Source: a virus (taxonomy: Duplodnaviria; Heunggongvirae; Uroviricota; Caudoviricetes). From it: 25,277 bases of DNA. Within the stretch, counting starts at the first letter, position 1. The number at the start of each line of letters is the position of its first letter. Made by a program: the position numbers and the translations under genes. The notes under the pieces are model-generated. The model made no database searches, had not been told where the DNA came from, and saw only the letters and a list, made by a program, of their open reading frames with translations. Below, one piece after another: positions 2,950-25,277 of the stretch. Location: IMG/VR virus record IMGVR_UViG_2737471859_000003, one strand, 5' to 3'.

Positions 2950-2952
2950 GAT

Positions 2953-3303: not shown

Positions 3304-3881
3304 TGTGGGCCTCCTGTCGAATCGCTGCCGCCTTTCACGCCACCGTGTTTATGCGTATGCACGGTAATGCCGTTTGAGGTGAAGTTGCCGCCGCTGTGCG
3401 TGATATTGCCGCTCATCTTTCCTCCTTTTGTGACGTCAATCGTCGCCGTTCTCAGAAGGTTTGTGCATTCCACGACGGGCGTATCCAGTTTCACGCTGAC
3501 GGATGCCTGTAAAGTGGCCGTTTTCATGCCGCTGGCGCTCAGTGCGCCAGCGTCCGCGTCGTAGCGGAACACCGCGCCGTCCGGCGCGCTGATCACGATT
3601 TCTTTCAGGCTTTTGCCGGGGGCCGGATTGGCATCACTCCACAGGCTGCCAATTATCATGGCGGTTTCCGGGTTGCCGCCAATGCAGGCAATTACCACCT
3701 GTTCGCCGGGTGATGGCGGCAGCCACACATTGAAGGCTCCCGCGCGCGTGGTGTTCCAGCGCAACCAGCCTGTTTCCAGTTCGCCGCTGCGAACGCGCAC
3801 GCGCCAGGACTTCTCATCAACTTCAGAGATGATCCCGGTGCGGATGATATTGCTCAGCAGTCGCATGAGTTCTGCGCTCAC
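3300..3881 (-). CDS. V: Baseplate spike/assembly protein, P2 gpV-like
   Basis: 193 aa; IIRTGII...VHTHKHGG motifs resemble P2 gpV; start overlaps the gpS stop. Confidence 0.85.
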   Translation of the reverse strand: MSAELMRLLSNIIRTGIISEVDEKSWRVRVRSGELETGWLRWNTTRAGAFNVWLPPSPGEQVVIACIGGNPETAMIIGSLWSDANPAPGKSLKEIVISAPDGAVFRYDADAGALSASGMKTATLQASVSVKLDTPVVECTNLLRTATIDVTKGGKMSGNITHSGGNFTSNGITVHTHKHGGVKGGSDSTGGPQ

Positions 3882-4513
3882 CGTACAGCCTCCGCAATCC
3901 GGCCCAGCACCGTGTTATAAATCAGGCGCTCATCTGCCTGGCTGATACCCAGCAGCTCACGTGCCGGGTAATTGGTGAAAATGCCCGGCGCAACCTGATC
4001 GCGCTCACCGAACTGATGAACGCGGGCAATACGTGCGGCCACGCCGCTGTAACCCACCGTCACACCGGAAGCATCTGCACGGGCTTTCAGGTAGCGGGCG
4101 GTGCGCAGTTTTACGAACATGGGGACGCGCTTTGTGCTGTCCTGGTTGATGCGCCGGGTGCGTATTTCCAGAAAACGGTCGATGTCATCCCGGTAAAACG
4201 TGCGGATATTGTTTTTATCCTCATCCCACCCGGTAATGGTTCGCCCGTATTTCCCCGTGTCGTGATGCCAGTTTTTCAGCGTGCGTGCTTCGTTATTCCA
4301 GATAAAGCGAATGCGTTCCTGTATCCGGGTTACGCGGCGTCTGCGTGGTGTCCACGCGGTCCCGTCCGGCGCTTTCTGTGACCGGATACGCGCCTGCTGG
4401 GCGCGGCGTAAATCCTGTGCCAGCTTTCTGGCGATGTTATTGATGGCCTGCTGACTCAGGCTGTCGCGGATGGCCTCAAAGGTTTCATCCACGCGGGTGA
4501 ATGCCTTATCCAT
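3878..4513 (-). CDS. S: Tail completion / virion morphogenesis protein, P2 gpS-like
   Basis: ORF frame 3878..4522; ATG at 4513 preceded by GGGGTGA. Position R-S-V as in P2. Start uncertain (GTG at 4522 is the alternative). Confidence 0.7.
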   Translation of the reverse strand: MDKAFTRVDETFEAIRDSLSQQAINNIARKLAQDLRRAQQARIRSQKAPDGTAWTPRRRRVTRIQERIRFIWNNEARTLKNWHHDTGKYGRTITGWDEDKNNIRTFYRDDIDRFLEIRTRRINQDSTKRVPMFVKLRTARYLKARADASGVTVGYSGVAARIARVHQFGERDQVAPGIFTNYPARELLGISQADERLIYNTVLGRIAEAVR

Positions 4514-9938: not shown

Positions 9939-11690
9939 ATGATTCAGGACGCTTTTGTGCGCCAGCGTGCGCGGCAACTTTACTGGCAGGGTTATCCGCC
10001 CGCAGAAATATCACGTCTGATGGGAATAAACCCGAACACGATTTATGCGTGGAAAAAACGTGACCAGTGGGATGAAACGCCACCCGTGCAGCGTGTCACG
10101 CAGTCCATCGATGCGCGCCTCATCCAGCTTACTGAAAAACAGAATAAAACAGGCGGTGACTTTAAGGAAATAGACCTGCTGACCCGGCAGCTTAAAAAGC
10201 TGCATGATGGCCAGCCGGATGTGATGGCCGCAGGAAAGAAAGGCCGGGCGAAAAAACTCAAAAATCATTTCACGCCGGAACAGATTGCCGCACTGCGGGA
10301 AAAAATCATCAGCAGGCTGGAGTGGCATCAGCGTGGCTGGTTTGACTCCCTTACCCTTTGCAGGGAAGCCGGGATACGTAACAGGATGATCCTGAAATCC
10401 CGACAGATTGGGGCGACCTGGTATTTTGCACAGGAAGCACTGCTGATGGCGCTGCGTGACGATGTGGCGCAACCTTACCAGCGTAACCAGATTTTTTTGT
10501 CTGCGTCGCGTCGTCAGGCGTTCCAGTTTAAAAGCATTATTCAGAAGGCCGCGGCTGAAGTTGATGTGGAGCTGAAAGGGGGCGATAAAATCATCCTCTC
10601 AAACGGCGCAGAGCTGCATTTTCTCGGCACTTCTGCTGCGTCGGCACAGTCCTATACGGGCAATTTTTATTTTGATGAATTTTTCTGGGTCAGTCGCTTT
10701 GCTGAACTGCGCAAGGTGGCTGGCGCGATGGCAACCCTCAGCGGACTGCGGCGCACCTACTTCTCCACGCCATCCACCGAAACGCACGAGGCATACGCCT
10801 ACTGGAACGGCGACCGCTGGAACGAGAAAAAGGCCGCGCATAAACGCCAGCATTTTTCTGTGGACTGGAAAACGCTGCATAACGGGCTTATCTGCCCCGA
10901 CCGGACGTGGCGGCAAATTGTCACGCTGGAAGATGTGGTTAATCACGGCTGGAAACACACCGATATCGACGAAATTCGTGATGAAAACACCGAAGACGAG
11001 TTTCTCAATCTCTATATGTGTGAGTTTGTCCGCGAAGGGGAATCGGCATTTAACCTGAATATCCTGATTGGCTGCGGCGTTGACGGGTACGACGACTGGA
11101 AAGACTGGAAACCTTTTGCTCCCCGCCCGATGGGGAATCGTCCGGTATGGATTGGGTATGACGCAAACGGCAGCAGCGGCAACGGCGACAGCGGCGCTGT
11201 GTCCGTGGTGGTTCCTCCGGCTGTTCCTGGTGGCCGTTTTCGAACGGTGGAGACGCGACGCGTTCAGGGGCTGGAGTTTGAAGAACAGGCCAGAGTCATT
11301 GAAGAGTTCACGTATCGCTACAACGTGGAACACATCGGCATTGATGTGACGGGCGGGAACGGGGAGGCTGTTTATCAGATAGTGAAACGGTTTTTCCCTG
11401 CTGCTATTCCGTACACCTTCACGCTGTCATCAAAACGGTCGCTGGTACTGAAAATGCTGCAAATAATGCGTGCCGGGCGGTGGGAATACGATCGCGCCGA
11501 ACGCGAGCTGGTCGCGGCCTTTAACGCCGTGCGTAAGGTGAAAACACCGGGCGGCTTTATCACTTACGAAACGGACCGCGCGAGGGGGATCAGCCACGGC
11601 GACCTTGCGTGGGCAACCATGCTTGCTGTCATTAACGAACCGATTGGCGGCGAAGGAGAAAACGAGCGTTTCACGGTTATGGAGTTCTGA
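9939..11690 (+). CDS. P: Terminase large (ATPase) subunit, P2 gpP-like
   Basis: 583 aa (P2 gpP ~590 aa); GGGGGAG Shine-Dalgarno before ATG 9939; stop overlaps the Q start by 1 nt (TGATG). Confidence 0.9.
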   Translation: MIQDAFVRQRARQLYWQGYPPAEISRLMGINPNTIYAWKKRDQWDETPPVQRVTQSIDARLIQLTEKQNKTGGDFKEIDLLTRQLKKLHDGQPDVMAAGKKGRAKKLKNHFTPEQIAALREKIISRLEWHQRGWFDSLTLCREAGIRNRMILKSRQIGATWYFAQEALLMALRDDVAQPYQRNQIFLSASRRQAFQFKSIIQKAAAEVDVELKGGDKIILSNGAELHFLGTSAASAQSYTGNFYFDEFFWVSRFAELRKVAGAMATLSGLRRTYFSTPSTETHEAYAYWNGDRWNEKKAAHKRQHFSVDWKTLHNGLICPDRTWRQIVTLEDVVNHGWKHTDIDEIRDENTEDEFLNLYMCEFVREGESAFNLNILIGCGVDGYDDWKDWKPFAPRPMGNRPVWIGYDANGSSGNGDSGAVSVVVPPAVPGGRFRTVETRRVQGLEFEEQARVIEEFTYRYNVEHIGIDVTGGNGEAVYQIVKRFFPAAIPYTFTLSSKRSLVLKMLQIMRAGRWEYDRAERELVAAFNAVRKVKTPGGFITYETDRARGISHGDLAWATMLAVINEPIGGEGENERFTVMEF

Positions 11691-12736
11691 TGAGCAGAAA
11701 AAATAAAAAAGTGCGCATGAGTTCACGCATTGATCTCGCTGATGCGCTCAGGAAAGAATCATCGCTCAGTGCATTCACATTTGATGGTCCTTATCGCCTG
11801 ACCGGGCATGATCTGCTGGACAATATGTACTGTGCTGATAACGGGCGGTGGTATGAAACCCCGGTGGACTGGTACGGTCTGGCAAGAGCTGCCCGGCAAA
11901 CGTCCTGGCATCAGTCTGCGCTTTACTTTAAGCGCAATGTATTGCTCGGTTGCTACATCCCGCACCCGCTGCTTTCCCGGCAGGATTTCTCGGCGCTGGC
12001 GCTGGACTGGTTTGTGTTCGGTAACGCATTCCTTGAGCTTCGGAGCAATATGCTCGGCGAACCACTTAAATTACGGCACGCACTGGCGAAATACATGCGA
12101 CGCGGAAGCGATCTTGAATCATGGTGGTATGTGCAGGATGGCAAGGACGCGTTTCAGTTTCGCCCTGGCAAAGTGTGCCACCTGATGAATCCGGACATTA
12201 ACCAGGAAATTTACGGCATGCCGGAATATCTTGGCGCATTACTCTCGGCCAGCCTGTCTCATTCGGCGGACATGTTCAGAAAACTGTATTACGACAATGG
12301 ATCCCACGCCGGGTGCATCATCTACATCGGTGCAGCGCAGGTAAACCGCGAAAGCATGGACTCCCTGAAAGAAACGTTACAGGGTGCGCGTGGTGGTGGT
12401 GCGTTTAAAAACGTGCTCATCCATGCGCCCAACGGGGGCAAAGAGGGGGTGCAAATTTTGCCGTTCCAGCAGATCACCGCAAAGGATGAGTTCATGAATG
12501 TTAAGGCGGCATCCCGTGATGATGTGCTGGCTGCGCACCGCGTTCCGCCGCAACTGATGGGGGCGATGCCGGGCGAAAAAAGTGCGTTTGGTGATGTGGA
12601 GAAGGCAGCGCGGGTTTATGCAATTAACGAGCTGATGCCCGTAATGGAGGCCATGAAGCATATCAATGACTGGCTTGGCGAAGAGGTGATCCGTTTTAAC
12701 TCTTATGCTCTTCTTGATGAAAAAACAGCCCCGTGA
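11690..12736 (+). CDS. Q: Portal (capsid portal) protein, P2 gpQ-like
   Basis: 348 aa (P2 gpQ ~344 aa), directly downstream of P. Confidence 0.9.
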   Translation: MSRKNKKVRMSSRIDLADALRKESSLSAFTFDGPYRLTGHDLLDNMYCADNGRWYETPVDWYGLARAARQTSWHQSALYFKRNVLLGCYIPHPLLSRQDFSALALDWFVFGNAFLELRSNMLGEPLKLRHALAKYMRRGSDLESWWYVQDGKDAFQFRPGKVCHLMNPDINQEIYGMPEYLGALLSASLSHSADMFRKLYYDNGSHAGCIIYIGAAQVNRESMDSLKETLQGARGGGAFKNVLIHAPNGGKEGVQILPFQQITAKDEFMNVKAASRDDVLAAHRVPPQLMGAMPGEKSAFGDVEKAARVYAINELMPVMEAMKHINDWLGEEVIRFNSYALLDEKTAP

Positions 12737-12752
12737 TGGGGCTGTCCTTTTT
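12721..12752. terminator. Bidirectional rho-independent terminator shared by convergent Q and the 174-aa gene
   Basis: AAAAA-ACAGCCCC-GTGAT-GGGGCTGT-CCTTTTT: an 8-bp GC-rich stem with a 5-nt loop, flanked by an A-run and a T-run. The Q stop codon lies in the loop. Confidence 0.7.
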
Positions 12753-13275
12753 ACCAGAGTTGAACCATTTTCTGGGTGCCGTCAGGCTTGAGATTATCAA
12801 TTTCAGAGAGAACGTAATATTGAATGGCTTCACAAACGGTGGTGTAGGGTGAATTACCTTCTTTAAGTGGCACGATATTATTATTAACGCGAACCTGTAT
12901 TTCATCGTTATACATTGCGATCGAAACAGGAGTGTGTACGAACGCGACTTCGCCAGGTGTGTCGTCAACCACCGTTTCAATACTAAAAGTCAGTTTTCGC
13001 TCATCATTGCTGCCTCGTGCTTTGGGGGTAGCGGCAGGGATCTGGGATAAAGGCATTCTGCGAAATCCTTCGGCTGCTTCCAGTCCACATGAAACGTAAT
13101 GCTGGCGATTACCGTCGCTATCTGTCCAGGTCTGTGATGGCAGCTCCAGCGAGATTTCATAAGCATCAACAATGCCCTGGGCAAGGCGTACAAGCGGGGT
13201 CAGATCTTCATTGCGGCGAAAGCTCTCCTTTACCTGCTCCCGTTTTTCTCTTAACTGCTTGTAATTAATGACCAT
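12751..13275 (-). CDS. Hypothetical protein (174 aa), cargo gene of unknown function
   Basis: ATG at 13275 (MVINYKQLREKREQVK...) 8 nt after GGAGG; open for 174 codons; lower GC than flanking structural genes; no family recognised. Confidence 0.6.
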   Translation of the reverse strand: MVINYKQLREKREQVKESFRRNEDLTPLVRLAQGIVDAYEISLELPSQTWTDSDGNRQHYVSCGLEAAEGFRRMPLSQIPAATPKARGSNDERKLTFSIETVVDDTPGEVAFVHTPVSIAMYNDEIQVRVNNNIVPLKEGNSPYTTVCEAIQYYVLSEIDNLKPDGTQKMVQLW

Positions 13276-13376
13276 AAGACAGCCTCCATTGATTTCTTTG
13301 CTCGTATTTTGCACTTATGAAGTATGGTCGGCAAGGTGCCGTATCGCTGACGCGCTTCGCTTGTCTGCTGCTTCGC

Positions 13377-13401
13377 CGGGGCATAAAAAATTTATGCCCC
13401 G
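13377..13401. repeat. Perfect 25-nt palindrome CGGGGCATAAA-AAA-TTTATGCCCCG
   Basis: Read directly from sequence; 11-bp arms with a 3-nt centre, ~100 bp upstream of the 174-aa gene start. Function unknown. Confidence 0.5.
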
Positions 13402-13806
13402 ACTCTCCAGCTCCTGTATCAATCAGATAATTTCACGACGCCTTCCAGCTTATTGTCATCATCGACGGTCAGGCTCTTACGCAATCCCGCCGTGCTGACT
13501 GCATGTTCTCGTCGCCTCAGTGCGATTTTGACGGCCTTATCAGTCACCCCATCAAATCAAAAGCCCTCACGTATTTTTCACGCTCAGCGAGAGAAAGACA
13601 GCCATTCCGTTGTGTCGCTGCGACATCGTTCAGGGAATGCTGTTTACCCCCTGAAACGCGGGCTGTTCCCCCGTCACCTGCGCGCAGAAAAAGCGCGTTT
13701 TTTTGTGCACGCACGGATCCTTGACCGATCCAGCCGCCATGCGGGCCGGAAGGGCAAAAAGTCGTTCAAAAAAATTGTGCAAATTTGTGCGCTTTTGTGC
13801 AAAGAA

Positions 13807-13829
13807 ATGCCCCTCAAATTGAGGGGCAT
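13807..13829 (-). terminator. Putative terminator hairpin just downstream of the S8 protease gene
   Basis: Perfect palindrome ATGCCCCTCAA-A-TTGAGGGGCAT about 15 nt after the stop at 13844, followed on the minus strand by TTCTTTG. Confidence 0.5.
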
Positions 13830-13843
13830 TATGTCTTGAAGGA

Positions 13844-16069
13844 TTACGAACGAATAGGAATTGATGTTTGCGGTTGAATTGGCACGAGCACCTGATTATA
13901 AGTACGTAAAATTTCGTTATACAGGTCTTGGTGCTTTGATGCCTTAATGGTAATTATAAGAGCATACTTGATTTTTTCTGCCTTATGGCTGGCTATGCTT
14001 GCACCGGCCTCACGAGCGTTATAATGAATGTCAAATACAGGATTTTTTAGAGTTGAACCTAGCATGTTCTTCGAATTATGTAAGACGGTCTCCCATTTGC
14101 CCATGTCAGAACGTCGCTCACTTTCAGTTGAATATTTGGCCAGTTCAAAGAATCCCTTGGTTTCAGCATTTTGTTTTCCGTCTTTGATTTTTGAATCATT
14201 TGGCCGGAATGTCACTTCCAAACCAGCTTTTGTATAGGAAGCTGGGTCTTGTGGATCAGTGGTTGTTGCATAACAGAAAGTTGCCGCTAAGTTTATTCTA
14301 CCTTTCAAGCCACCTTCAGGTATTGGAAGAGGAGCGCGTAAGTATTTTCCTGGTTTCAATTCACCTTGGTAGACGATACGGGCAACACCATCAGGGCTGA
14401 CTATAATGTCGTTCAAGTCTTCAGGAAGTTTTCCCCAGCCAACTTCTGTACAAGGATGATCAAGCTGTTTTGACGCATGAATTAACAAAGCTTTGATTGC
14501 TAGTAGGCTCAAATCGTTCCCTAAAATTGCCCGAACACCAACAGCTGCTCGTAAGGCGTAAGGAGAGGCAAAGCTTGTTCCTAGCTGGGGTATGATTACA
14601 GGCTTCTTACCTTTACCTAAAACATGAAAGTACTCGTCTGTGTCACCACCAAACGCAACTAAATCCGGTTTCATCACGCCAGGACTTCTGCCTGGCCCAA
14701 TGGCGCTATATGGTGCTCGTTTCCATTCCGTATCATTAACTGTATCACAAGCACCAACAGCAAGAGCATTAACGCAATCGGCTGGTACTTGAATTCTTGC
14801 ATTACCAGACTTGCGATCCATTTCTCCATTGTTGCCAACAGCAACAGTCATTAATGTTTCACCATCACTTAACAAATCATCAATAACGGAAGTCCATGCA
14901 TGAACTTCCGTATCTTCAATTGGTAGGTCTGGACCTAAACTTAGATTGATAAACTGATACTGGCGAGACAACAATACCTCTTCAATAAAGCCCAAAGTTC
15001 GATATAGTTCCAGCGGATCTTCTTGGCAGGTCTTGTTGTCCAAAACTCTTAAGTTATCAATATAAGAGTATGGTCTTTTCGCTTCCGATTTATTACTTAT
15101 TGGTCCAAATAAAAAGGCTGAAGACACAGCTAAACCATGCTCTAAACCGTCTGGATCATCCTCTGCATGATCGTCCAAAACTCTATAGGATTTTAACCAT
15201 GGCGATATAGCGTGCTCTGATGGTAAACCACCATCAAGAATCGCAACTTTTATTTCTGAAGATACGGGGCCCTCAGCAGGCAATTTACACTGAGCTAAAG
15301 GACCGTAGTTCCTTTGTATTGGTCTAATCCCACGCAATCTTGGAACCGGTCTTATTACTCGTACAAATGTAAATTTCGCAAGCTTACTAATAGTAATTCT
15401 ATCGGCCTGGATTGGCACGAACCATAATGTACCAGCGGTAAAAGCTAATGAAGTATGTACTTTGATGTTCAAATTTGATGCAAACTGAACAAATTGTTGC
15501 TGAACCAAGTCTTGTTCATTATCTGGCAGTAAATGAACACCAACCTCAAAATACGAAGAATCCTGCTCACCAATGGTAATAATACGCTCTTCGGGTAAAT
15601 AGGCATCGAACCGTTCTATGCGTGCAAAATCAATCGCTTCGTCAGAAAACTCTTTGAGTCCTGACACCCAATGAGGTAACTCTTTGAAGGATTCTCTTTT
15701 ACCAGCAACAAACATTTGTGTCGTAGTTACTTCTGACACAGTAACTTTTCGCTTCCAGCTTTGAGGCGTAATTTTTACCGTCCTGCTGCCAATAGACGTT
15801 AACCCGGTAGACTTAAGCATTTTTGCAGGAAAAAAAGAGCGTGCAATATAGCTCGGATTCAACGTCAACTTAGCCACAGCATAATCATAAGGACATGCCT
15901 GACTGGGTAAATCATCAAAATTTTCTATAGTAGATGCAATTTGCGGCAATAACCGTTGTTTCGATTCGTAAAGAGAATAAACCTCAGCTTTTCCGGGCAC
16001 TCTTTTAGGACCAGGAATATCGCTGGTTAATAATTCGCCGCGTCCAATCAGAAAATTAGTTTTCGCCAT
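13844..16069 (-). CDS. Subtilisin-like (peptidase S8) serine protease, 741 aa, with N- and C-terminal extensions of unknown function; tentatively IetS-like
   Basis: Catalytic triad motifs in subtilase order: Asp in VAILDGG, His in EHGLAVSS, Ser in GTSFASP. AAGGAG Shine-Dalgarno 5 nt before the ATG. AT-rich codon usage unlike the phage backbone. Confidence 0.8.
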   Translation of the reverse strand: MAKTNFLIGRGELLTSDIPGPKRVPGKAEVYSLYESKQRLLPQIASTIENFDDLPSQACPYDYAVAKLTLNPSYIARSFFPAKMLKSTGLTSIGSRTVKITPQSWKRKVTVSEVTTTQMFVAGKRESFKELPHWVSGLKEFSDEAIDFARIERFDAYLPEERIITIGEQDSSYFEVGVHLLPDNEQDLVQQQFVQFASNLNIKVHTSLAFTAGTLWFVPIQADRITISKLAKFTFVRVIRPVPRLRGIRPIQRNYGPLAQCKLPAEGPVSSEIKVAILDGGLPSEHAISPWLKSYRVLDDHAEDDPDGLEHGLAVSSAFLFGPISNKSEAKRPYSYIDNLRVLDNKTCQEDPLELYRTLGFIEEVLLSRQYQFINLSLGPDLPIEDTEVHAWTSVIDDLLSDGETLMTVAVGNNGEMDRKSGNARIQVPADCVNALAVGACDTVNDTEWKRAPYSAIGPGRSPGVMKPDLVAFGGDTDEYFHVLGKGKKPVIIPQLGTSFASPYALRAAVGVRAILGNDLSLLAIKALLIHASKQLDHPCTEVGWGKLPEDLNDIIVSPDGVARIVYQGELKPGKYLRAPLPIPEGGLKGRINLAATFCYATTTDPQDPASYTKAGLEVTFRPNDSKIKDGKQNAETKGFFELAKYSTESERRSDMGKWETVLHNSKNMLGSTLKNPVFDIHYNAREAGASIASHKAEKIKYALIITIKASKHQDLYNEILRTYNQVLVPIQPQTSIPIRS

Positions 16070-16092
16070 ACATACTCCTTATCTATGCTGTA

Positions 16093-17214
16093 TTACATTT
16101 TTTGACTGTATTTTCTAATTGTATCCCTACTGACTCCGGTTAAGTCTGATATGGCATGCTGGGATAATTTAGAATTTCTTTTTAGAGTAACTGCAATTTC
16201 TTTACGTTCATTCCTGTCTAATTCTGATAAACCATCTTTAATGAACGACCCAATCAACTCTTCATCTGAGGAAATACCTAAAGCGACCGAACGTCGGAAT
16301 TTGTTGATAGAACGCTCAATATTACTAAAAGATTCATTTTTGAACATAATAGCCAGTAGATCTATCCAACGTGCAAAAATCGCGTAGTCGGGACCTGAAA
16401 AGCGTTTAATTGCTTCTTTAATACTTTCGCTATCTGGCTTCTCAAAATTGAGCACTAAATCAAAACGTCTCCATAGTGCTGGATCAATCAACTCAGCGAA
16501 GTTAGTTGCAGCAAGTAACAAACTAGAAGACGGCCATTCGTCAACCTCCTGGAGTATTACGGTAACAAGTCTTTTTAATTCTCCAACATCAGAATCATCA
16601 CTTCTCTTTTTGGCGATTGAATCAATTTCATCTAACAGAAGAACGCACGGCCCTTTCTTCGCAAAATCTAGAGCTGCCCGAAGGTTATTTCCGCTTTTGC
16701 CCAGATAGCTGCTCATTACTGCCGTTAAATCAAGAACGTAAAAAGGAACCCCTAATTTCTGAGCTAACCAGCTTGCCGTAAGTGTTTTACCTACACCCGG
16801 AGGGCCAACAAAAATGGCAGAGCGTGTTGGTTGTAAGCCGAGAGTCTTGAGGCGATCGATGTGCTTCCGCTCAAGAATAATTTGATCCAGTGAGTCTTCT
16901 ATCTGACTGGACAGTAGAGGTTTGCTCACAATCTTTTCATTTGGTGCTTTAAGCAAGGTAAGCCTTGACTCCTCGTCCACAGGCATGGTTTGAGGCAGCG
17001 CTTGTTTTGGTGCGGTAACCTTACGCAGGCTTTGTGCAGGCTTTTGCGGTTTATTTCGTAGATAAAGATCAAGCTGCTCGGATAGAGCAGGCATAGTTTC
17101 CCGATATTTACGCACCAAGCGAGCGACATATAACCGAACGTCATCATACTGTTCAGTTATTACCAGTCTAACTAGTTGGGCTAAATCTGACTGAATACCA
17201 CCTAAGTCGCCCAT
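16093..17214 (-). CDS. Classical AAA+ ATPase, 373 aa; tentatively IetA-like
   Basis: Walker A GPPGVGKT, Walker B LLLDEID, sensor-1 / second-region-of-homology LLLAATNFAELIDPALWRRFD. The extreme C-terminus LSQHAISDLTGVSRDTIRKY looks like a helix-turn-helix. 23-nt gap to the protease gene suggests an operon. Confidence 0.8.
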   Translation of the reverse strand: MGDLGGIQSDLAQLVRLVITEQYDDVRLYVARLVRKYRETMPALSEQLDLYLRNKPQKPAQSLRKVTAPKQALPQTMPVDEESRLTLLKAPNEKIVSKPLLSSQIEDSLDQIILERKHIDRLKTLGLQPTRSAIFVGPPGVGKTLTASWLAQKLGVPFYVLDLTAVMSSYLGKSGNNLRAALDFAKKGPCVLLLDEIDSIAKKRSDDSDVGELKRLVTVILQEVDEWPSSSLLLAATNFAELIDPALWRRFDLVLNFEKPDSESIKEAIKRFSGPDYAIFARWIDLLAIMFKNESFSNIERSINKFRRSVALGISSDEELIGSFIKDGLSELDRNERKEIAVTLKRNSKLSQHAISDLTGVSRDTIRKYSQKM

Positions 17215-17394
17215 CTTAACTGTAACCTCTTGATTTTAAGTGAATTGAAAAAGCATTTAACTGGACTATTTATAGTATTGCACTTTTTTATCAAACAGGG
17301 AAGAGGAATACTATATGAAATTACAGTGTGCCTCATGGAACGTCCTTACCATGTCTAAACTCTACCTTCATACAATTGATGATTTCTTTCTTGG
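17215..17394 (-). promoter_or_regulatory. AT-rich spacer between gene A and the ATPase gene; probable promoter region of the ATPase-protease operon
   Basis: 180-bp AT-rich non-coding stretch; minus strand contains TTGATA...TATAAAT-like hexamers ~55 nt upstream of the ATPase ATG, but the spacing is suboptimal. Confidence 0.3.
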
Positions 17395-20178
17395 TTATTT
17401 TTTCTTCTCGCTATTGCCTTTGTCCTGCAACAGACCCGCCTTGTGACGTGCGCGTTCAGTGGTTTCATTGATTCTCTGTGCGTGCTCTGCGTCACGGATG
17501 GCGCGCAGCATGTCAGAAAGCACGGTAACGGGAGTTTTCATGGTGTTCTGGTCCTGCTGAATTGTGGATGCCAGGCGTGCAGCGGCTTCAGGGTCTGATG
17601 CCCCGAGCTGTTTCAGATAGCTGGAAACCGGGTTATGGCGGATTTCCGTGCTGTTTACGCCGTGATTACGGCTCAGGCGCTGCCAGAGCTGCGTGATTCG
17701 GCTGTCCGGTCGGGTATCTGGTTTGCGTACAATTTCAAATCCCTGCGGTGCAATGATGCTGCCGTCAACGTACAGACTGCCGCCTCGTAACAGGTGCTGC
17801 ATCTGCTGTTCACCGATATGCAGGCCGAGAGATTCGGCAGATTCCCGCCATTCTTTAGCGAGTAATTCGTGGTTATCAGGCAAAGGCCGCTGCTGTTTGC
17901 GGCTCTGTGTCCAGCTCTGCATTTCATCACTGCTGTTTTTTGCCTGTTTGTCACGAAGCGAACGCATCAGCGCCCGGCGTTCGTGCCGTTTCAGTGAGCG
18001 CATCCATTCGTTCACTTCAACGCCGTCAGGGAGCTGCGGCCACGGTGCTGGCCGTTCTTCCGGCTGTTCTGTCCCGTTGTTGTCCGTTTCCTGTACACGG
18101 GGACAGTTATTGCCACGAGTCCAAGGGGCGGCAGAGCCGCCCTGAAGGTCAAAACCATTTTCGTGGGTGCTGTCTTCCGCTTCCGGTTTACGTCTTACCA
18201 GCTTCCAGTTATCCGGGTGCGTGCACACACGGGAGGATTCCCCGATGAGTGGCGACCAGATCCCGTAAATCTGTACACTCTGTTCGCCGTAATCGTTCAG
18301 CTCATCTGCGAGGTCGTAGGCTGTGCGAATCAGGTAGTCCTTGCGCGGAACAAGTACGCCACCCTGTTTTTCAATGTAGGTGGCAAAACACCCGGCATCA
18401 GCGGCAGCAAGAACCGCATCCATTGCGTCATCCTTCAGCCGTTGCGGGCCCTCCGGGTTGCGTGCCATCTGGCTGGCAAGGCGGCGGAGTTCACGCCACA
18501 CCTGACGGGAGGGGATGCCAAAGAACTGGAACTGGCGGACCCGGTGAAGGCGCGCCCAGCCGATGGCGCGCTCCACGCTCTCGGCCATTGATTTTCCGGT
18601 TTCGTGGTCAACGCGTGGCTTGCCCGTTTTCGGGTCGATGCCATCTACGGCGCGGCTGTCCAGGTTTTTTCCGATGTAGGTCGCGATATAGCTGGTTGGT
18701 GTGCCTTTTGAGCCGTCGACATACTCCGCCTTAAAGCGCGGAGTAATATCATCGCCCAGTTCGTGACGATCTTCCTGAATGGCAATATCGCGGGTGATGG
18801 CCACGATGCTGTCGATTTCTTCCGGATGAGCAAAGACCATCATATGCCAGTGCACGGTGCCGTCATGGTGAGGCTCCACCGTGCGGATGCCATACCAGCG
18901 CAGGCCGTCGCGGTTCAGTTTTTTGCGGACCGCCGCAAAAAACGTGTTAACCAGGTAATCGCTGGAGTCGCGCATGGTGGCCCCGTTCCATTTGGGATTC
19001 GGATGACCGTTCTCCGTTGTTGCGTGGTATTTTGACGGGCAGGTGACAGTCAGAAACACCGCTTTGTCACCACGGGCTTCGGCCAGAAGTTCCAGCCCCT
19101 TCATGGTGGCCATCATTTCTGCCTTACGGTGAACCGGGTTACTTACTCCCGCGTAATACACTGTCTCGAGATCAATCGTGAACCCGTCTTCATTTTCCAG
19201 CATGAAACTTTTCAGGAAATCGCGTGTTTTCTCGCGCTGTGCGCGAAATTCACTTAATGCGTCCTGGCTCAGATAGGGTGATGTTTTTCTGGAAACCAGA
19301 CAGGCGGCGCGAAGTTGTTCTTCTCTCCACTCGCAACGTAAAAGCCACAGTTTGCGTTTCCACCATTCCGCACAGGTCAGGCGAAGGATTGCACCCGGCA
19401 GCAGTTCCGTGTCCGGTTCGTTCCTCCGGTCTTTGTCTGTTGTCAGTGCGTCATAATGCGGAGGCATGGCGTGCAGGTGTAACGCCATGCGGGCCAGCAT
19501 CTGATACGCCTTCAGCGTTACATCCATGGTCAGCTCGCCATCAGTCGCACCAAAGCCATCGCAGAGCTTTTCGAAGGTGCTGCTGAACATCGCCGCCGTC
19601 ATGGTGGCCAGCGTCTGTATCTGGTGTTTGTTGAGCTGCGGCAGGTAAAGCAAATCGTCCAGGCGTTCGCGTCCGGCAATGGAGCGATAACCCGGTGTCA
19701 GCCAGCGGCTGTCGGTGCGGTCCAGACGTCCGAATATTTTGCGCAGGGTTCCGCGTGCATAGCGTTCCGCCTGCCAGCTCTTTTTGCCTTTCTGGCGATC
19801 GGCTTCCTGTTTTTTGCGCAGGAAAGAGAGGTGGCGGCTCAGTGGTTCACGCAGATAAACAGGTAGTGCCTTTAGTGTGGCAAAGGCACGGGCTACCGGG
19901 TCTTGTTCTGTTGCCCGGCGCTTACTGATGATGCTCTGTGCCAGCTTTTCACGCTGTCCGGCTTCCTCAAGGGATGCCATGAGTTTTTTACCCATGGCGG
20001 ATTGTGCGAAAAAGGCTTCTTCCTTCGCTTCCTGTTCTTCCTGTGCCCTTTTGTCCGCCTCAAGGTAGTAACGGATGGCGCGTTGCAGGTCGGTTTCAGT
20101 TTCCTGCCTGCGCTCCGTAAATCTGGCCGGATCAATGGCTGGCCGTGGTTCATTCCAGCTCCATGCAAACTCACTCAT
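17395..20178 (-). CDS. A: Replication initiation endonuclease (rolling-circle, HUH-type), P2 gpA-like
   Basis: ATG at 20178 (MSEFAWSWNEP...) overlaps the upstream gene stop (ATGA). HUH motif in TVHWHMMVF and paired tyrosines in SYIATYIGKN, as in P2/phiX174 A proteins. ~927 aa versus ~761 aa in P2. Confidence 0.8.
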   Translation of the reverse strand: MSEFAWSWNEPRPAIDPARFTERRQETETDLQRAIRYYLEADKRAQEEQEAKEEAFFAQSAMGKKLMASLEEAGQREKLAQSIISKRRATEQDPVARAFATLKALPVYLREPLSRHLSFLRKKQEADRQKGKKSWQAERYARGTLRKIFGRLDRTDSRWLTPGYRSIAGRERLDDLLYLPQLNKHQIQTLATMTAAMFSSTFEKLCDGFGATDGELTMDVTLKAYQMLARMALHLHAMPPHYDALTTDKDRRNEPDTELLPGAILRLTCAEWWKRKLWLLRCEWREEQLRAACLVSRKTSPYLSQDALSEFRAQREKTRDFLKSFMLENEDGFTIDLETVYYAGVSNPVHRKAEMMATMKGLELLAEARGDKAVFLTVTCPSKYHATTENGHPNPKWNGATMRDSSDYLVNTFFAAVRKKLNRDGLRWYGIRTVEPHHDGTVHWHMMVFAHPEEIDSIVAITRDIAIQEDRHELGDDITPRFKAEYVDGSKGTPTSYIATYIGKNLDSRAVDGIDPKTGKPRVDHETGKSMAESVERAIGWARLHRVRQFQFFGIPSRQVWRELRRLASQMARNPEGPQRLKDDAMDAVLAAADAGCFATYIEKQGGVLVPRKDYLIRTAYDLADELNDYGEQSVQIYGIWSPLIGESSRVCTHPDNWKLVRRKPEAEDSTHENGFDLQGGSAAPWTRGNNCPRVQETDNNGTEQPEERPAPWPQLPDGVEVNEWMRSLKRHERRALMRSLRDKQAKNSSDEMQSWTQSRKQQRPLPDNHELLAKEWRESAESLGLHIGEQQMQHLLRGGSLYVDGSIIAPQGFEIVRKPDTRPDSRITQLWQRLSRNHGVNSTEIRHNPVSSYLKQLGASDPEAAARLASTIQQDQNTMKTPVTVLSDMLRAIRDAEHAQRINETTERARHKAGLLQDKGNSEKKK

Positions 20179-20564
20179 GGCTGGTATCCCGTCACGCGCT
20201 GCCACTCCTGCGAGAAGATGGCGGAAAGGCGGTTAAATTCAGCGGTGTATTCACTCAGCGAGGCACACCCGCCAGCAGTGCGATGCGCCAGCATTGCCGC
20301 AAATACGGAGGCCGGGGAGTCATAATACGCCAGCAGTGATTCGCCGTGTGGTGTCAGGCAGTGCAACGCCAGCCCGTGTGGTGTGAAATCCACGCGGTAG
20401 CAGTCGTCTACTGTGAAATAAAGGGTGTCCGCATTCTCCGGTTTTGTGGTGCGTGCTCTGTTGTCACGACCACGGATGTAGAGATCAAATAATCCCTGAA
20501 GAATGGGAGCCAGACGGGTGTCCTGTGTGCGCACCCATCTTGTGAAGTCATGAGCGTCAATCAT
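20175..20564 (-). CDS. Hypothetical early-operon protein (129 aa)
   Basis: ATG start; stop overlaps the A start codon, implying translational coupling; no family recognised. Confidence 0.55.
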   Translation of the reverse strand: MIDAHDFTRWVRTQDTRLAPILQGLFDLYIRGRDNRARTTKPENADTLYFTVDDCYRVDFTPHGLALHCLTPHGESLLAYYDSPASVFAAMLAHRTAGGCASLSEYTAEFNRLSAIFSQEWQRVTGYQP

Positions 20565-21979: not shown

Positions 21980-22390
21980 CTATGCGTTAAATACGGTGTG
22001 TCGGGCGTCATCAATGAATGCAACTTGAGAGCGCTCTATCAGGCGGAGATTTGTCAGAAGCGCTGATTCCCTTATGGGGTGAGGAGTGATCAGGTATTTG
22101 TCCTGTAATCCGGCAATAATGGTGTATCGCTGTAGCTCCGAGCCAATTGTGTAAATAAGGCGTCCGGTGTTAGATAAATCCAGTCCGGTGACTGGTTGAG
22201 TTTTGAAAAGCGTAAGTTCCGCACCCTGTTCTTCGATGATTTTGGCGGCTTCTGCCGTGACTTTTGCGACTATCATTGTGTGGGTCGCGACGTCTATATG
22301 ATTATTTGCTACGGCTTTTTTCGCTACTTCGCTTTCCATCTTTGAAATTTCTTTCAGTGCTCTGATGATACCTTCTTCTTTTGCGTGCAT
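21980..22390 (-). CDS. Hypothetical protein (136 aa), AT-rich moron-like gene
   Basis: ATG at 22390 preceded by GGAGA; lower GC than neighbouring genes; followed by an AT-rich non-coding stretch. Confidence 0.55.
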   Translation of the reverse strand: MHAKEEGIIRALKEISKMESEVAKKAVANNHIDVATHTMIVAKVTAEAAKIIEEQGAELTLFKTQPVTGLDLSNTGRLIYTIGSELQRYTIIAGLQDKYLITPHPIRESALLTNLRLIERSQVAFIDDARHTVFNA

Positions 22391-22483
22391 TTTTGTATCT
22401 CCGTTATCTGCGTGTGCGAATACCTCCGTTAATACGGATGGTTTTCACGTTTTCTTATTTAATTTGATGTTTTATTTGTATCG

Positions 22484-22597
22484 TTATTCACCAGTGAAAA
22501 AACGTTCAATCTTTTTTACTGAATGAATAATTCGCATAATCCCAATGGCGCAGGCCACTGAAATAATCAGAGCAAGCCATGAAATAAATATACTCAT
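22484..22597 (-). CDS. Small hydrophobic peptide (~37 aa, single predicted TM helix), below the ORF-track length cut-off
   Basis: ATG at 22597..22595 overlaps the stop of the 80-aa gene (ATGA); by-eye translation MSIFISWLALIISVACAIGIMRIIHSVKKIERFFTGE. End coordinate approximate. Confidence 0.4.
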   Translation of the reverse strand: MSIFISWLALIISVACAIGIMRIIHSVKKIERFFTGE

Positions 22598-22836
22598 GCG
22601 ATATTCCCCAGCTTATACGGTTCAATATGTTCCCCGCATTCTGCGGCACAGATTAGCTCGGAAAGTTCGTTAAGTGCATCCAGATCATCAGCGTAAAAAG
22701 CCACGTCATACAGACTCCGGATTGCCCTGGTCAATGAGTCACGGGCTGCACGTTCAGCATGAGCGCCTGATGCACTTAAGCGAAAATAAAAACGCTCAAG
22801 TGCTTTGTTAATGAGAGTTTTATATTCTTTGCCCAT
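22594..22836 (-). CDS. Hypothetical protein (80 aa)
   Basis: ATG start with an AAGGG upstream. Confidence 0.5.
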   Translation of the reverse strand: MGKEYKTLINKALERFYFRLSASGAHAERAARDSLTRAIRSLYDVAFYADDLDALNELSELICAAECGEHIEPYKLGNIA

Positions 22837-22847
22837 CGCAACGCCCT

Positions 22848-23126
22848 TTAATCTGCTTTCTGAATTTCAGCTTCTGAATCCATACAAATAATTTCGATAT
22901 ATGGTTCATCGCCATTAACCTGACGTGCCTTTTCAGCTTCGCTAATGATTTCTCGCACGGTCTGGTACGGAAGCTCCACAGTCAAGCGCGTACCGTTCAG
23001 ATAAACGTAAGTAGCTGCGTTTTTTTCGGATGGAACAACTCCGTCAATGGCTGATGCGCGTAATAACAGTTCACCGCGAAAATCAATAAAACGGATAAAT
23101 ACACCTTGTGCATGCTCTTTGGTCAT
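22848..23126 (-). CDS. Hypothetical protein (~92 aa)
   Basis: Track ORF 22848..23186 begins with TTG; the first ATG is at 23126 after AGGTG, clear of the upstream gene stop at 23137. Confidence 0.5.
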   Translation of the reverse strand: MTKEHAQGVFIRFIDFRGELLLRASAIDGVVPSEKNAATYVYLNGTRLTVELPYQTVREIISEAEKARQVNGDEPYIEIICMDSEAEIQKAD

Positions 23127-23136
23127 AAAGCACCTG

Positions 23137-23478
23137 TTATAAATCAGCCTGTTTAATAAAACTTTGCCCGCGAAGCAGACGATCAACCGTGCGTAGTGCT
23201 TCGTATAATGTGAAATCCTGCCCGAACTGATTGTCGCCGCAGCTCAATGCAAAAATGCGGTTTCCGGTAAACGGATTGCGTGGACATTTGCGGACCACGA
23301 TTCCAGCTTTCTCAATCAGCCAGGCATGCTCGCCGATTTGTTTTACTGGGTAGCCATCCGGCGTTGCGTGTGTATCACTCAGGCTGTAGCGGATGTTGCT
23401 GCGTGATGCGCTGGTAGCGAAACGGTTAGCGTGGCGTTCAGCACCATTACGAAAGCGTGAATTACGTTGCTGTTTCAT
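23137..23478 (-). CDS. Hypothetical early protein (113 aa)
   Basis: ATG at 23478 preceded by GGGAG; first gene after cox. Confidence 0.5.
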   Translation of the reverse strand: MKQQRNSRFRNGAERHANRFATSASRSNIRYSLSDTHATPDGYPVKQIGEHAWLIEKAGIVVRKCPRNPFTGNRIFALSCGDNQFGQDFTLYEALRTVDRLLRGQSFIKQADL

Positions 23479-23496
23479 ATCAAAACTCCCTGCATC

Positions 23497-23823
23497 TCAT
23501 GCAGCAAAATTAAGAAAGCCTAATCCCAAATCTTCCGCCAGCTTCTTAGCTTTATTAAGCCAGTGGTTGCGCCAATCTTTACGCTCAGGAGGAAGCTGTT
23601 TCGTTGCGTCATAGACCATTTCGAGCCACTCGTTCCATAAGATGAGGAGGCGGCGTGAACTTCCTTCCTCGCCTAAAACTTCACGCTCAGTAGCCAGAGG
23701 GATGAGCCGACGTTCCACCAACTTTCTTACGGCTGATTCGGTCTTGCCCGTGCGGCGGGCAAATTCATCGACGGTGATGGGGTCTGGGATCTTAAACAAT
23801 GCCCTCAATAGTTCTTCATTCAT
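23497..23823 (-). CDS. cox: Cox-like excisionase / early transcriptional regulator
   Basis: ATG at 23823 (MNEELLRALFKIPDPITVDEFARRTGKTESAVRKLVERRLIP...) after GGGAGA; HTH-like N-terminus and W-rich C-terminus reminiscent of P2 Cox; divergent from C as in P2. Confidence 0.7.
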   Translation of the reverse strand: MNEELLRALFKIPDPITVDEFARRTGKTESAVRKLVERRLIPLATEREVLGEEGSSRRLLILWNEWLEMVYDATKQLPPERKDWRNHWLNKAKKLAEDLGLGFLNFAA

Positions 23824-23918
23824 GTGATAATCTCCCTGTTTGGGGTATTTCTTGCGACGGATGCCCCAAATCAAACTCATTTGTATAAACATTAATACAG
23901 ACGTTGGAGAATTGCAAC
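23824..23918. promoter_or_regulatory. Immunity switch region: divergent early (Pe) and repressor (Pc) promoters with putative operators
   Basis: 95-bp gap between divergent cox and C. Contains inverted repeat TTTGGGG...CCCCAAA with arms ~18 nt apart. Confidence 0.6.
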
Positions 23919-24221
23919 ATGCGTATGACTATTGGAGAGCGCATAAAAATCATGCGTGAAAGCGAGAGACTTACTAGCCTCCCGGATACAGCAAAAATGC
24001 TTGGTTTAAACCGTGATGCTCTGTGGAGATATGAAAGCGGTAAAACTATCCCTAATGCTGAAGTAATTGAGCAAATACTAAACAACCCCAGATTTGAGAA
24101 ATATGCGTTGTGGTTTATGACTGGAAAAATTGCGCCTGAATCCGGGCAGATAGCTCCGGCTCTCGCACACTATGGGCAAGAGCCAACGGACTTACCCCCA
24201 TCCGAAAGGAAAATTGGTTAA
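23919..24221 (+). CDS. C: Immunity repressor, P2 C-like
   Basis: ATG at 23919, 8 nt after GGAGA. YALWFMTGKIAPESGQIAPALAHYGQE closely matches P2 C (YTLWFMTNQIAPESGQIAPALAHFGQN) as I recall it. Confidence 0.85.
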   Translation: MRMTIGERIKIMRESERLTSLPDTAKMLGLNRDALWRYESGKTIPNAEVIEQILNNPRFEKYALWFMTGKIAPESGQIAPALAHYGQEPTDLPPSERKIG

Positions 24222-24287
24222 CCCTTTATTATTCTTACGTTTTACAAACTGGAAATGTCTTTCCTCGTTTCACCGGAGGGCTTGCCA

Positions 24288-25277
24288 ATGGCAATTAAAG
24301 CGCTCGATGGTGGACGGTATAAAGTGGATGTTAGACCGCGTGGCCGAAGTGGACGTCGGATTCAGCGGATTTTTAAGAAAAAGGCAGATGCAGTGGCCTT
24401 TGAGCGTTATGTTCTCAGCCACATGCACGATAAGGAATGGCTTGAAAAGCCAACAGAGCAACGTCATCTCTCAGATCTGCTTCCGTTATGGTGGGAATTG
24501 GGTGGACGCAATAAGCCATATGCTAACGGCGTTCTAACCAGGTTGAAAAAAATCATCAAAGAAATGAATGATCCAAGGGTTAGCCAGATTAATGCTCGTT
24601 TCATGGCCGCTTATCGAAGCTCCCGTTTATCCTTGGGAGTAAAAGAGTCTACTGTTCGGCGTGATGAGTCGGATCTCGGAGGAATGTTTACACTCCTGGC
24701 AAATGCCGGGGAATTTCACGGAGAAAATCCGCTCCGCGCCCTCCCCTCTTTGAAACGAAAATCACCCGAAATGACGTATCTCACCACGGAAGAAATCGCC
24801 AAATTACTGGATGCAGTAAGCGGTGATGCCCGGCGGATTACGCTACTTTGTCTCAGTACTGGTGCGAGATGGGGAGAAGCGAAAAATCTGCGCGCGGAAC
24901 ACATCATCAATAACCGCGTGACGTTTAACAAAACTAAAAACGGAAAAGTTCGAATTATTCCTGTCTCTGATGAAGTTGTTAGTGAGATCAAAACAAAGAA
25001 ATCCGGCCTTTTGTTTGACGTCAATTATGAGGAATATCGCAAGGTGCTTCGCAGTGTTAAGCCTGACCTACCGAAAGGGCAGGCTGTACATGTTCTACGC
25101 CATACCTTTGCAGCTCACTTTATGATTAATGGAGGAAATATACTTACGCTCCAGCGAATTATGGGGCACGCCACGATCCAGCAAACTATGACCTATGCGC
25201 ACCTCGCTCCTGATTTCCTCCAGGAGGCAATTTCACTTAATCCGTTAAAAGGAGGTATCCACATTTCATCCACATAA
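24288..25277 (+). CDS. int: Tyrosine integrase, P2 Int-like
   Basis: ATG at 24288 (MAIKALDGGRYKVDV...) after GGAGGG. LSTGARWGEA, HVLRHTFA and YAHLAP match P2 Int catalytic regions. Stop codon is the last 3 nt of the window. Confidence 0.9.
   Translation: MAIKALDGGRYKVDVRPRGRSGRRIQRIFKKKADAVAFERYVLSHMHDKEWLEKPTEQRHLSDLLPLWWELGGRNKPYANGVLTRLKKIIKEMNDPRVSQINARFMAAYRSSRLSLGVKESTVRRDESDLGGMFTLLANAGEFHGENPLRALPSLKRKSPEMTYLTTEEIAKLLDAVSGDARRITLLCLSTGARWGEAKNLRAEHIINNRVTFNKTKNGKVRIIPVSDEVVSEIKTKKSGLLFDVNYEEYRKVLRSVKPDLPKGQAVHVLRHTFAAHFMINGGNILTLQRIMGHATIQQTMTYAHLAPDFLQEAISLNPLKGGIHISST

Follow-up and report, generated by a model that had tools for sequence, protein, structure and literature searches.

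Two adjacent, co-oriented genes encoding an ATPase and then a protease lie between replication gene A and portal gene Q of a P2-like prophage of E. coli related to phage P88, and this location raises the question of whether the pair is anti-phage cargo, an addiction module or part of the phage's own life cycle. In the window, i.e. the whole stretch of 25,277 nucleotides analyzed here, the ORF list gives exactly two such genes, with the limits and the 23-nt gap described in the original prediction. Both are on the minus strand: ietA, as we name it for the reasons given below, spans 16093..17214 and encodes a classical AAA+ ATPase of 373 amino acids, and ietS spans 13844..16069 and encodes an S8 subtilase of 741 amino acids. 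The 23-nt spacer (16070..16092, minus strand) carries an AAGGAG ribosome-binding site, and this spacing with a ribosome-binding site implies that ietA and ietS are on a single transcript. The ATPase-protease order and the tight spacing are kept in the homologous loci examined in five other genera; a 4-nt overlap takes the place of the spacer in the homologues from Stenotrophomonas and Burkholderia. Directly 3' of ietS, and after ietS only, an intrinsic terminator (13802..13837, minus strand), made up of a G+C-rich hairpin of 11 bp and then UUUCUUU, closes the two-gene operon; it folds with -19.4 kcal/mol (z = -4.84), and 0/200 shuffled sequences fold as well.

The original prediction had placed the pair between genes A and Q. 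Both flanks were identified, but Q is not the direct neighbor. The upstream anchor, P2 replication gene A (gpA; 17395..20205, minus strand), matches Phage_GPA in Pfam with 2.5e-131 and is named "replication endonuclease" by RefSeq in strain M1/5, in which the locus is 99.1% identical. The downstream anchor, portal gene Q (11690..12736, plus strand), is annotated as portal in the M1/5 locus. Between ietAS and Q lie a cos-proximal segment (about 13343-13807), which is conserved among P2-like phages and adjoins the portal gene in the related ones, and an ORF of 174 amino acids (ORF174; 12751..13275). We do not give the exact cos site because the P2 and 186 cos sequences, searched for with up to 6 mismatches, gave matches at chance level only. 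ORF174 was considered as a third ietAS component and rejected: the terminator and the cos-proximal segment separate it from ietS, it is missing in most of the ietAS prophages listed, in which the matches start downstream at query position 644, and phage PhiR44_2, with a different cargo in the same slot, carries ORF174 beside that cargo.

Judged by sequence, the window pair is an intact ietAS, a known anti-phage/toxin-antitoxin family. IetA contains GPPGVGKT (residues 137-144), LLLDEID (192-198), ATN (236-238) and DPALWRRFD (244-252) and matches AAA PF00004 in Pfam over residues 134-258 (2.6e-30), while IetS contains ILDGG (277-281, with D279), HGLAVSS (311-317, with H311) and GTSFASP (497-503, with S499) and matches Peptidase_S8 PF00082 over residues 271-546 (2.5e-19). 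Thus, the motifs from which a classical AAA+ ATPase and a full subtilase triad had been called are all in place. In PADLOC, the window proteins match only the IetA and IetS models and generic AAA models. The family matches are full length, with IetA residues 9-372 aligned to positions 5-370 of 374 in PDLC02196 (1e-77) and IetS residues 36-726 aligned to positions 38-733 of 749 in PDLC02197 (6.7e-52). The profile searches in Pfam and PADLOC that had been proposed as a check therefore returned AAA, Peptidase_S8, IetA and IetS, and the proposal of ietAS held; as a member of this known family, the pair does not qualify as a new ATPase-protease module, the alternative considered. As in the ietAS of Gao et al. 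2020, the operon is ATPase-first, and the encoded pair consists of an AAA+ ATPase and a roughly 740-residue S8 protease.

The window ietAS is nevertheless, on sequence comparison, a separate, diverged lineage. The top match of IetA in NCBIfam is IteA NF042959 (full length, 5.2e-66), which scores 223.3 bits where the cut-off is 510; the only match of IetS is IteS NF042956 (full length), which scores 136.6 bits where the cut-off is 900. Hence, the pair is a family member outside the narrow equivalog group. Proteins named IteS by PGAP have about 23-28% identity to the window IetS, and it is these identities together with the scores below the equivalog cut-offs that argue for a separate lineage. 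The sub-cut-off scores also explain why RefSeq names the pair in M1/5 only generically, as "AAA family ATPase" and "S8 family peptidase". The ietAS common in E. coli P2-like elements differs from that in the window, with 43% identity in IetA and 33% in the N-terminal half of IetS. The ietA/ietS genes of pTiC58 (NC_003065 97873-101373) have the same order and encode the same domain pair. Their IetA has 35% identity to the window IetA in the AAA cores (E 1e-41) but, at 328 amino acids, lacks the C-terminal helix-turn-helix (HTH) that is probable in the 373-residue window protein; their IetS, with 836 amino acids versus 741, is related at the profile level only, with a marginal BLASTP E of 0.01 and catalytic domains that are about 21% identical. 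We link the two IetS proteins because both match the PADLOC IetS models; the pTiC58 pair matches the same PADLOC models as the window pair, more weakly. The ietHAS system (Liu et al. 2026, NAR gkag308) shares ietA and ietS with the window but requires a third gene, ietH, for an SNF2-type helicase, whereas the window has no helicase gene between gpA and the portal gene: no SNF2-family helicase domain was found in the further ORFs of at least 60 amino acids in 13314-17394, and only two genes are annotated in this interval in M1/5. The window lineage is large: the scored candidates include more than 2,200 homologues at E <= 1e-10, of which the best 120 have at least 65% identity.

Is the pair cargo or a part of the phage? 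According to Rousset et al. 2022, the P2 gpA-gpQ interval is a defense hotspot in which several occupants have been validated and cargo turns over quickly (PMC9122126). Table S4 of that article lists WP_000502620, WP_001556981 and WP_000236495 between gpA and gpQ. The window IetA is 100% identical to the first of these, IetS is identical to the second at 739/741 positions (2 residues differ), and the third is the neighboring 174-aa ORF. In the same source, the AAA|Peptidase_S8 class carries the label "ietAS (Gao et al, 2020)" and is counted as system 7, with 400 loci the 7th most abundant P2 cargo; in its available text, we found no experimental test of ietAS (PMC9122126). Thus, the original prediction of anti-phage cargo in the P2 old/tin slot agrees with a published hotspot in which this very trio of accessions is recorded; the pair is already catalogued as P2-like prophage cargo and is flagged by standard tools such as PADLOC. 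P2 old/tin and the window ietAS occupy the same cos-proximal cargo slot from gene A to gene Q, and old/tin exclude other phages (PMC9122126), but the P2 old/tin proteins are unrelated to IetA and IetS. As a discovery, the locus therefore adds little, ietAS being a named system and its carriage in the P2 hotspot being published.

The position of the pair inside a prophage, beside replication and packaging genes, would also fit a role in the phage's own life cycle, for example in morphogenesis or maturation, as a protease and its chaperone, or in counter-defense. We regard this as very improbable. Of the ~1142 E. coli genomes with matching flanks, only 42 have the pair, a megablast search of 50,697 phage records with the operon gave no match, and tblastn of phage records gave distant homologues only. 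The pair has a G+C content of 41.6%, compared to 53.9% outside it in the window, which would be expected of acquired cargo, and none of the P2 capsid and scaffold genes is missing from the remainder of the window. Moreover, ietAS pairs are found in chromosomal and plasmid contexts without nearby phage genes. On these grounds of rarity, foreign G+C content and non-phage contexts, we rejected a core phage function. In the same slot, Serratia prophages carry a 77%-identical pair and the isolated Enterobacter phage phiT5282H a 38%-identical pair; outside P2, pairs are found in Stenotrophomonas, Burkholderia, Photorhabdus and Salmonella. Across genera, and in phage and non-phage contexts alike, ietA and ietS are always inherited together.

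Based on these data and on what is reported for homologues, we suggest, with a probability of roughly 85%, that the window contains an intact ietAS as exchangeable gpA-gpQ cargo and that abortive infection by a restrained toxin is the best explanation of its function. In this model, which builds on analogy, IetS would be a cytoplasmic protease with toxic activity, and IetA would restrain it in a manner that requires ATPase activity and would thus be antitoxin-like. During infection, a phage protein would lift the restraint by IetA, and the freed IetS would cut cell or phage proteins. As a result, the infected cell would arrest or die before phage release, and the resident P2-like prophage and the host population would be protected. 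In ietHAS, ietS is assigned as the toxin and ietA behaves as the antitoxin, defense requires protease activity, and an ietA mutant was not clonable; its authors call the mechanism unknown (PMC13069673). A B. cereus system shows abortive-infection behavior triggered by SPbeta yosG (bioRxiv 10.1101/2022.08.27.505566). The ietAS of E. coli ECOR52 gives weak defense alone and synergy with Zorya II; the primers used to clone it were compared to the window to see whether the window pair is this allele, and they gave no match at up to 3 mismatches. Phage protection that requires the catalytic residues has been shown in other ietAS systems. In the literature, we found no experimental test of the window lineage. 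IS insertions in ietS were found in E. coli E06 and in an Enterobacter hormaechei plasmid; they are compatible with a cost but prove nothing.

The same toxin-antitoxin logic could serve addiction by post-segregational killing: in cells in which the element is lost or inactivated, IetA would no longer restrain the longer-lived IetS, which would kill them, the module would mainly stabilize the prophage, and the anti-phage effect would be secondary. The history of the system speaks for this reading, as the first description of ietAS was of a toxin-antitoxin system that stabilizes the plasmid pTiC58 (Yamamoto 2009, cited in PMC13069673). IetS homologues are also found on many plasmids (62 PLSDB records). 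The regulatory features point in the same direction. An HTH together with an inverted repeat is typical of autoregulated toxin-antitoxin operons, and the window pair has candidates for both. The C-terminal region of IetA probably ends in an HTH (about residues 335-372), as suggested by weak, sub-threshold Pfam matches to HTH_11 (1.3e-3) and HTH_23 (5.2e-3) and by conservation within the subfamily; a PDB sequence search with the C-terminal 65 residues was uninformative on the HTH. The regulatory region (17215..17394, minus strand), from the gpA stop codon to the ietA start codon, contains a 15-nt inverted repeat upstream of ietA with arms at 17271-17285 and 17301-17315 and a perfect 9-bp core (TATAGTATT/AATACTATA). 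The arms are identical between E. coli and Serratia, while the proteins have diverged by 16-23%, and the ietA ribosome-binding site, AGAGG, follows the repeat. The HTH of IetA probably autoregulates the operon at this repeat. A conserved block on the minus strand, GTGCAATACTATAAATAGTCCA (about 17262-17283), is kept in six taxa and resembles an extended -10 element; a generic sigma-70 scan showed no enrichment, with 8 sites versus 8.6 expected in shuffled sequence, and we therefore only infer a promoter here. Against a mainly addictive role stand the phage-dependent toxicity and protection observed in homologues and the location in a fast-turnover hotspot with validated defense for several occupants (PMC9122126). 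Addiction as the main function is possible, although we do not consider it probable; the addiction and defense roles are not mutually exclusive.

How could IetA act on IetS? IetA consists of an N-terminal helical region (residues 1 to about 105), a classical-clade AAA+ module (about 110-275) and the C-terminal region described above. The Walker A lysine K143, Walker B D195/E196, sensor-1 N238 and Arg fingers R249/R250 are present, and K143, D195 and E196 are invariant; conservation extends to the pore loop, the Walker motifs and the Arg fingers. Pore loop 1 is intact (Y170-L171-G172), and because this aromatic-hydrophobic-Gly loop is kept, IetA looks like a hexameric unfoldase at the sequence level. 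Its best PDB sequence matches are to Cdc48/p97/VAT (1e-44 to 1e-47). These features could be taken to mean that the pair is a two-component ATP-dependent protease like ClpXP or the proteasome, in which an IetA hexamer would unfold specific phage proteins and pass them to IetS, so that infection would be blocked directly and the cell would survive. The similarity of IetA to Cdc48/p97, VAT and proteasomal ATPases, the intact pore loop and Arg fingers, and the strict co-inheritance and translational coupling of ietA and ietS favor this arrangement. However, subtilases are open-cleft, monomeric endopeptidases without a gated chamber. In addition, IetS alone is reported to be toxic and loss of IetA function is not tolerated in the homologous system (PMC13069673), which fits restraint better than delivery, and the B. 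cereus homologue behaves as an abortive-infection system (bioRxiv 10.1101/2022.08.27.505566). For these reasons, we consider delivery of phage proteins to IetS unlikely.

For restraint of a toxic IetS by IetA, the predicted structure of IetS points to a control point. Structure prediction of the regions flanking the protease domain had been suggested, and it returned ferredoxin-like modules on the N-terminal side and a β-sandwich on the C-terminal side. The AlphaFold2 model from a 75-sequence, two-clade alignment (pLDDT 80.7, pTM 0.86) replaced an earlier one from 45 close homologues, in which the catalytic domain had a mean pLDDT of 54.8 and for which Foldseek matches were weak. In the new model, the N-terminal part (residues 1-270; 15260..16069, minus strand) is predicted to form a short tail and then tandem ferredoxin-like β-α-β-β-α-β modules, one at about 31-150 and one at about 151-241. 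The latter appears similar to the I9 propeptides of subtilases. In the linker after the modules, a basic/proline motif (R237, R240, P243, R246, P250, R253) is conserved. The S8 catalytic domain (residues 271-548; 14426..15259, minus strand) carries D279, H311, S499 and the oxyanion Asn N413 within VGNNG (411-415), and these four residues are invariant in 75 IetS homologues from two clades. The predicted C-terminal β-sandwich (residues 549-741 with the stop codon; 13844..14425, minus strand) is KP-43-like. Thus, in the model, IetS has the build of an unprocessed pro-subtilase, in which an I9-propeptide-like module precedes the S8 domain and a KP-43-like C-terminal β-domain; this is new in the present analysis. 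Given this build, the I9-like N-terminal module probably keeps IetS in a zymogen state.

The pro-subtilases KP-43 (1wmd), Tk-SP (3afg/9ues), pro-subtilisin E (3whi, unprocessed) and PCSK9 have 9-23% identity to IetS. They are secreted, whereas IetS has no recognizable N-terminal hydrophobic signal sequence in its first 30 residues, as judged by eye; unlike them, IetS also has an extra upstream ferredoxin-like module and an AAA+ ATPase partner. A PDB sequence search for solved IetA or IetS structures found none; all matches were generic ones to Cdc48/p97 and subtilisin. Because IetA looks like an unfoldase, the likely control point would be ATP-driven remodeling of IetS or its prodomain by IetA. 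More tentatively, we speculate that the IetS lineage consists of cytoplasmic zymogens in which the I9-like prodomain (about 151-241) and the Arg/Pro linker form a switch worked by IetA, which would either keep IetS latent or strip the prodomain on sensing a phage protein. If so, the switch would be the first concrete, testable mechanism for ietAS, and it would be unusual in that an AAA+ machine gates a subtilase zymogen within a bacterial cell. The pro-subtilase-like architecture of IetS and the pore loop and probable HTH of IetA make specific mutants and assays possible, in a lineage that is large and recurrent in P2-like prophages of E. coli and Serratia and yet generically named in RefSeq. 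Many of the E. coli matches listed are porcine ETEC strains.

The ATPase-protease pair in this P2-like prophage is securely identified as an ietAS system. In support of the original prediction, the PADLOC models for IetA (the AAA+ ATPase) and IetS (the S8 subtilase) match the two proteins end to end (1e-77 and 6.7e-52, respectively). The two co-oriented genes were also placed exactly, i.e. as minus-strand ORFs at 17214..16093 (ietA, 373 aa) and 16069..13844 (ietS, 741 aa), and the 23-nt gap between them contains an AAGGAG ribosome-binding site. All motifs quoted in that prediction are present at the expected positions, namely Walker A GPPGVGKT (residues 137-144), Walker B LLLDEID (192-198), ATN (236-238) and DPALWRRFD (244-252) in IetA, and ILDGG (D279), HGLAVSS (H311) and GTSFASP (S499) in IetS, which also contains VGNNG (N413). 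The two domain assignments hold in Pfam (AAA, 2.6e-30 in the ATPase; Peptidase_S8, 2.5e-19 in the protease), and an alignment with subtilisin E shows that the catalytic triad and the oxyanion Asn of IetS are correctly placed. IetA is a classical-clade AAA+ ATPase with Cdc48/p97, VAT and the proteasomal ATPases as its nearest solved relatives. Walker A, Walker B, sensor-1 N238 and R249/R250 are invariant, and pore loop 1 (Y170-L171-G172; homologues have Y/L/F, L/M and G at the three positions) lines up with the Cdc48 D2 loop W-F-G. This set of features is what one expects in a substrate-threading AAA+ unfoldase.

The gene upstream of the pair encodes P2 gpA (Phage_GPA, 2.5e-131), and the remaining window is that of a P2-like prophage with tail, lysis, capsid, terminase, portal, Cox and integrase genes. 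A core phage function for ietA and ietS is excluded because the pair is sporadically distributed, has a foreign G+C content (41.6% vs 53.9% elsewhere in the window) and also occurs outside phages. Among complete RefSeq E. coli genomes, at least 80% of the locus is present in 42 of 5,426, while the flanking genes are matched in ~1,142; the closest match is strain M1/5 (99.1% nucleotide identity). The window IetA and WP_000502620 have the same sequence, and IetS differs from WP_001556981 by two residues. The system is already known and the window gene pair is already listed in the literature, since Rousset et al. 2022 (PMC9122126), who described the interval from gpA to gpQ as a defence hotspot, assigned 400 loci to its AAA|Peptidase_S8 class (system 7), labelled “ietAS (Gao et al, 2020)”. 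In porcine ETEC surveys, ietAS was reported in 35 of 79 strains (PMC11267873), and many porcine ETEC strains are among the BLAST matches listed for the window locus. The top NCBIfam matches are IteA for IetA and, as the sole match, IteS for IetS, both with full-length coverage and with scores far under the equivalog cut-offs (223 bits vs 510 and 137 vs 900, respectively); the NCBIfam spelling is IteA/IteS, not Iet. Because these cut-offs exclude this large lineage, RefSeq (PGAP) gives the proteins the generic names “AAA family ATPase” and “S8 family peptidase”. In PHROGs, they fall into two families of unknown function.

The window lineage is other than the one that has been studied. Compared to a representative of the common E. 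coli P2 ietAS, IetA is 43% identical and the N-terminal half of IetS 33%. The founding pTiC58 pair (NC_003065, 97873-101373) is matched by the same PADLOC models with weaker scores; its AAA core is 35% identical to that of the window, while its IetS gives only a marginal BLASTP match. The cloning primers for ECOR52 ietAS, the system tested by Wu et al., have no match in the window and, thus, ECOR52 carries a different allele. The window lineage is large and well conserved: more than 2,200 of the candidate proteins examined had E <= 1e-10, and the top 120 are at least 65% identical and nearly all full length (738-741 aa). Across the loci examined, ietA and ietS always co-occur. The pair occupies the gpA-portal slot in Serratia prophages (IetS 77% identical) and in the isolated Peduoviridae phage phiT5282H of Enterobacter (38% identity), in whose record the ATPase is labelled ftsH. 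It is also plasmid-borne and occurs outside P2 settings in Stenotrophomonas, Burkholderia, Photorhabdus and Salmonella. At a chromosomal Stenotrophomonas locus, ietAS adjoins a gene for a 479-aa trypsin-like protease (2720-4159) and lies near an SLFN-like helicase gene (12620 onwards), in what looks like a small defence island. Insertion sequences interrupt the ietS homologue of E. coli E06 (NZ_CM143910.1) and that of an Enterobacter hormaechei plasmid (NZ_CP077309.1); one of the two genes carries an IS5-like ISKpn26 and the other an IS3-like ISEc52, and such repeated disruption would be consistent with a toxin that is costly to its host.

The regions flanking the subtilase domain, which the original prediction could not assign, have now been modelled. 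A first AlphaFold2 run on IetS with 45 homologues of 65-92% identity gave a confident N-terminal domain and a subtilase fold with pLDDT <50. With a 75-sequence alignment to which a second clade at ~38% identity had been added, pLDDT was 80.7 and pTM increased from 0.44 to 0.86; thus, shallow alignments can fail even on familiar folds. In the model, the N-terminal ~270 residues are predicted to form two ferredoxin-like modules, the second at the position of a subtilase propeptide. This assignment is based on the longer alignments with pro-forms (ProN-Tk-SP, 388 residues; unprocessed pro-subtilisin E, 317) than with mature subtilases (only ~224-250). The C-terminal ~190 residues are modelled as a beta-sandwich domain. 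A junction motif (R237, R240, P243, R246, P250, R253) is common to both clades, and by reading, no hydrophobic signal sequence was seen in the first 30 residues.

Directly 3' of ietS, a strong hairpin is followed by UUUCUUU (13802-13837; -19.4 kcal/mol, z = -4.84). Upstream of ietA, the block GTGCAATACTATAAATAGTCCA (TGCAATACTATAAATAGTCCA), which resembles an extended -10 element, is recognisable in six taxa (E. coli, Serratia, Photorhabdus, Salmonella, Stenotrophomonas and Burkholderia), and in E. coli and Serratia it is flanked by a perfect 9-bp inverted repeat, TATAGTATT/AATACTATA. Block and repeat (17262-17315, minus strand) are a candidate promoter and operator for a probable C-terminal HTH of IetA. 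The corresponding segment, LSQHAISDLTGVSRDTIRKY, has only sub-threshold HTH matches; it is conserved in the window and phiT5282H lineages, while pTiC58 IetA lacks it. Because of this conserved segment and the upstream repeat, it is reasonable to suggest that IetA autoregulates its operon.

Work on ietAS homologues assigns the toxin role to IetS and the antitoxin role to IetA; defence needs protease activity, and cloning of a mutated ietA was not achieved (PMC13069673). The B. cereus system shows abortive-infection behaviour with SPbeta yosG as the trigger (bioRxiv 10.1101/2022.08.27.505566), and an E. coli ietAS gave weak protection by itself and synergy with Zorya II. Our literature searches found no mechanistic or structural paper on ietAS. 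For the window system, we infer that IetA would restrain latent IetS in an ATP-dependent manner and that a phage protein would disturb this restraint; proteolysis by IetS would then arrest or kill the infected cell, and the population bearing the prophage would be protected. We hypothesize that the modelled I9-like prodomain of IetS is the element acted on by IetA. The alternative of a ClpXP-like degradation machine is a poorer fit to the toxin/antitoxin genetics. It is plausible that ietAS is mainly a prophage addiction module, which would be compatible with a role in defence. The remaining value of the window pair lies in its lineage, for which we found no experimental test, the annotation gap and this structure-based mechanism hypothesis.

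A 174-aa ORF (WP_000236495; 12751-13275, minus strand; phrog_5091, unknown function) between the portal gene and the cos-proximal conserved segment has no match in Pfam, NCBIfam or PADLOC. It is missing from most listed ietAS-carrying prophages, whose matches start downstream at query position 644, and is present in phages PhiR44_2, vB_EcoM-569R5 and vB_EcoM-705R2, where the hotspot holds quite different cargo. The ORF is a second insertion, independent of ietAS, and its position may represent a small cargo site, so far unrecognised, that lies to the portal side of cos. At the early/immunity end of the prophage (22000-25000), the G+C content is lower (0.44-0.47), and a DUF4761 protein (23137-23478, minus strand; 7e-69) is encoded next to the Cox-like regulator and the integrase.
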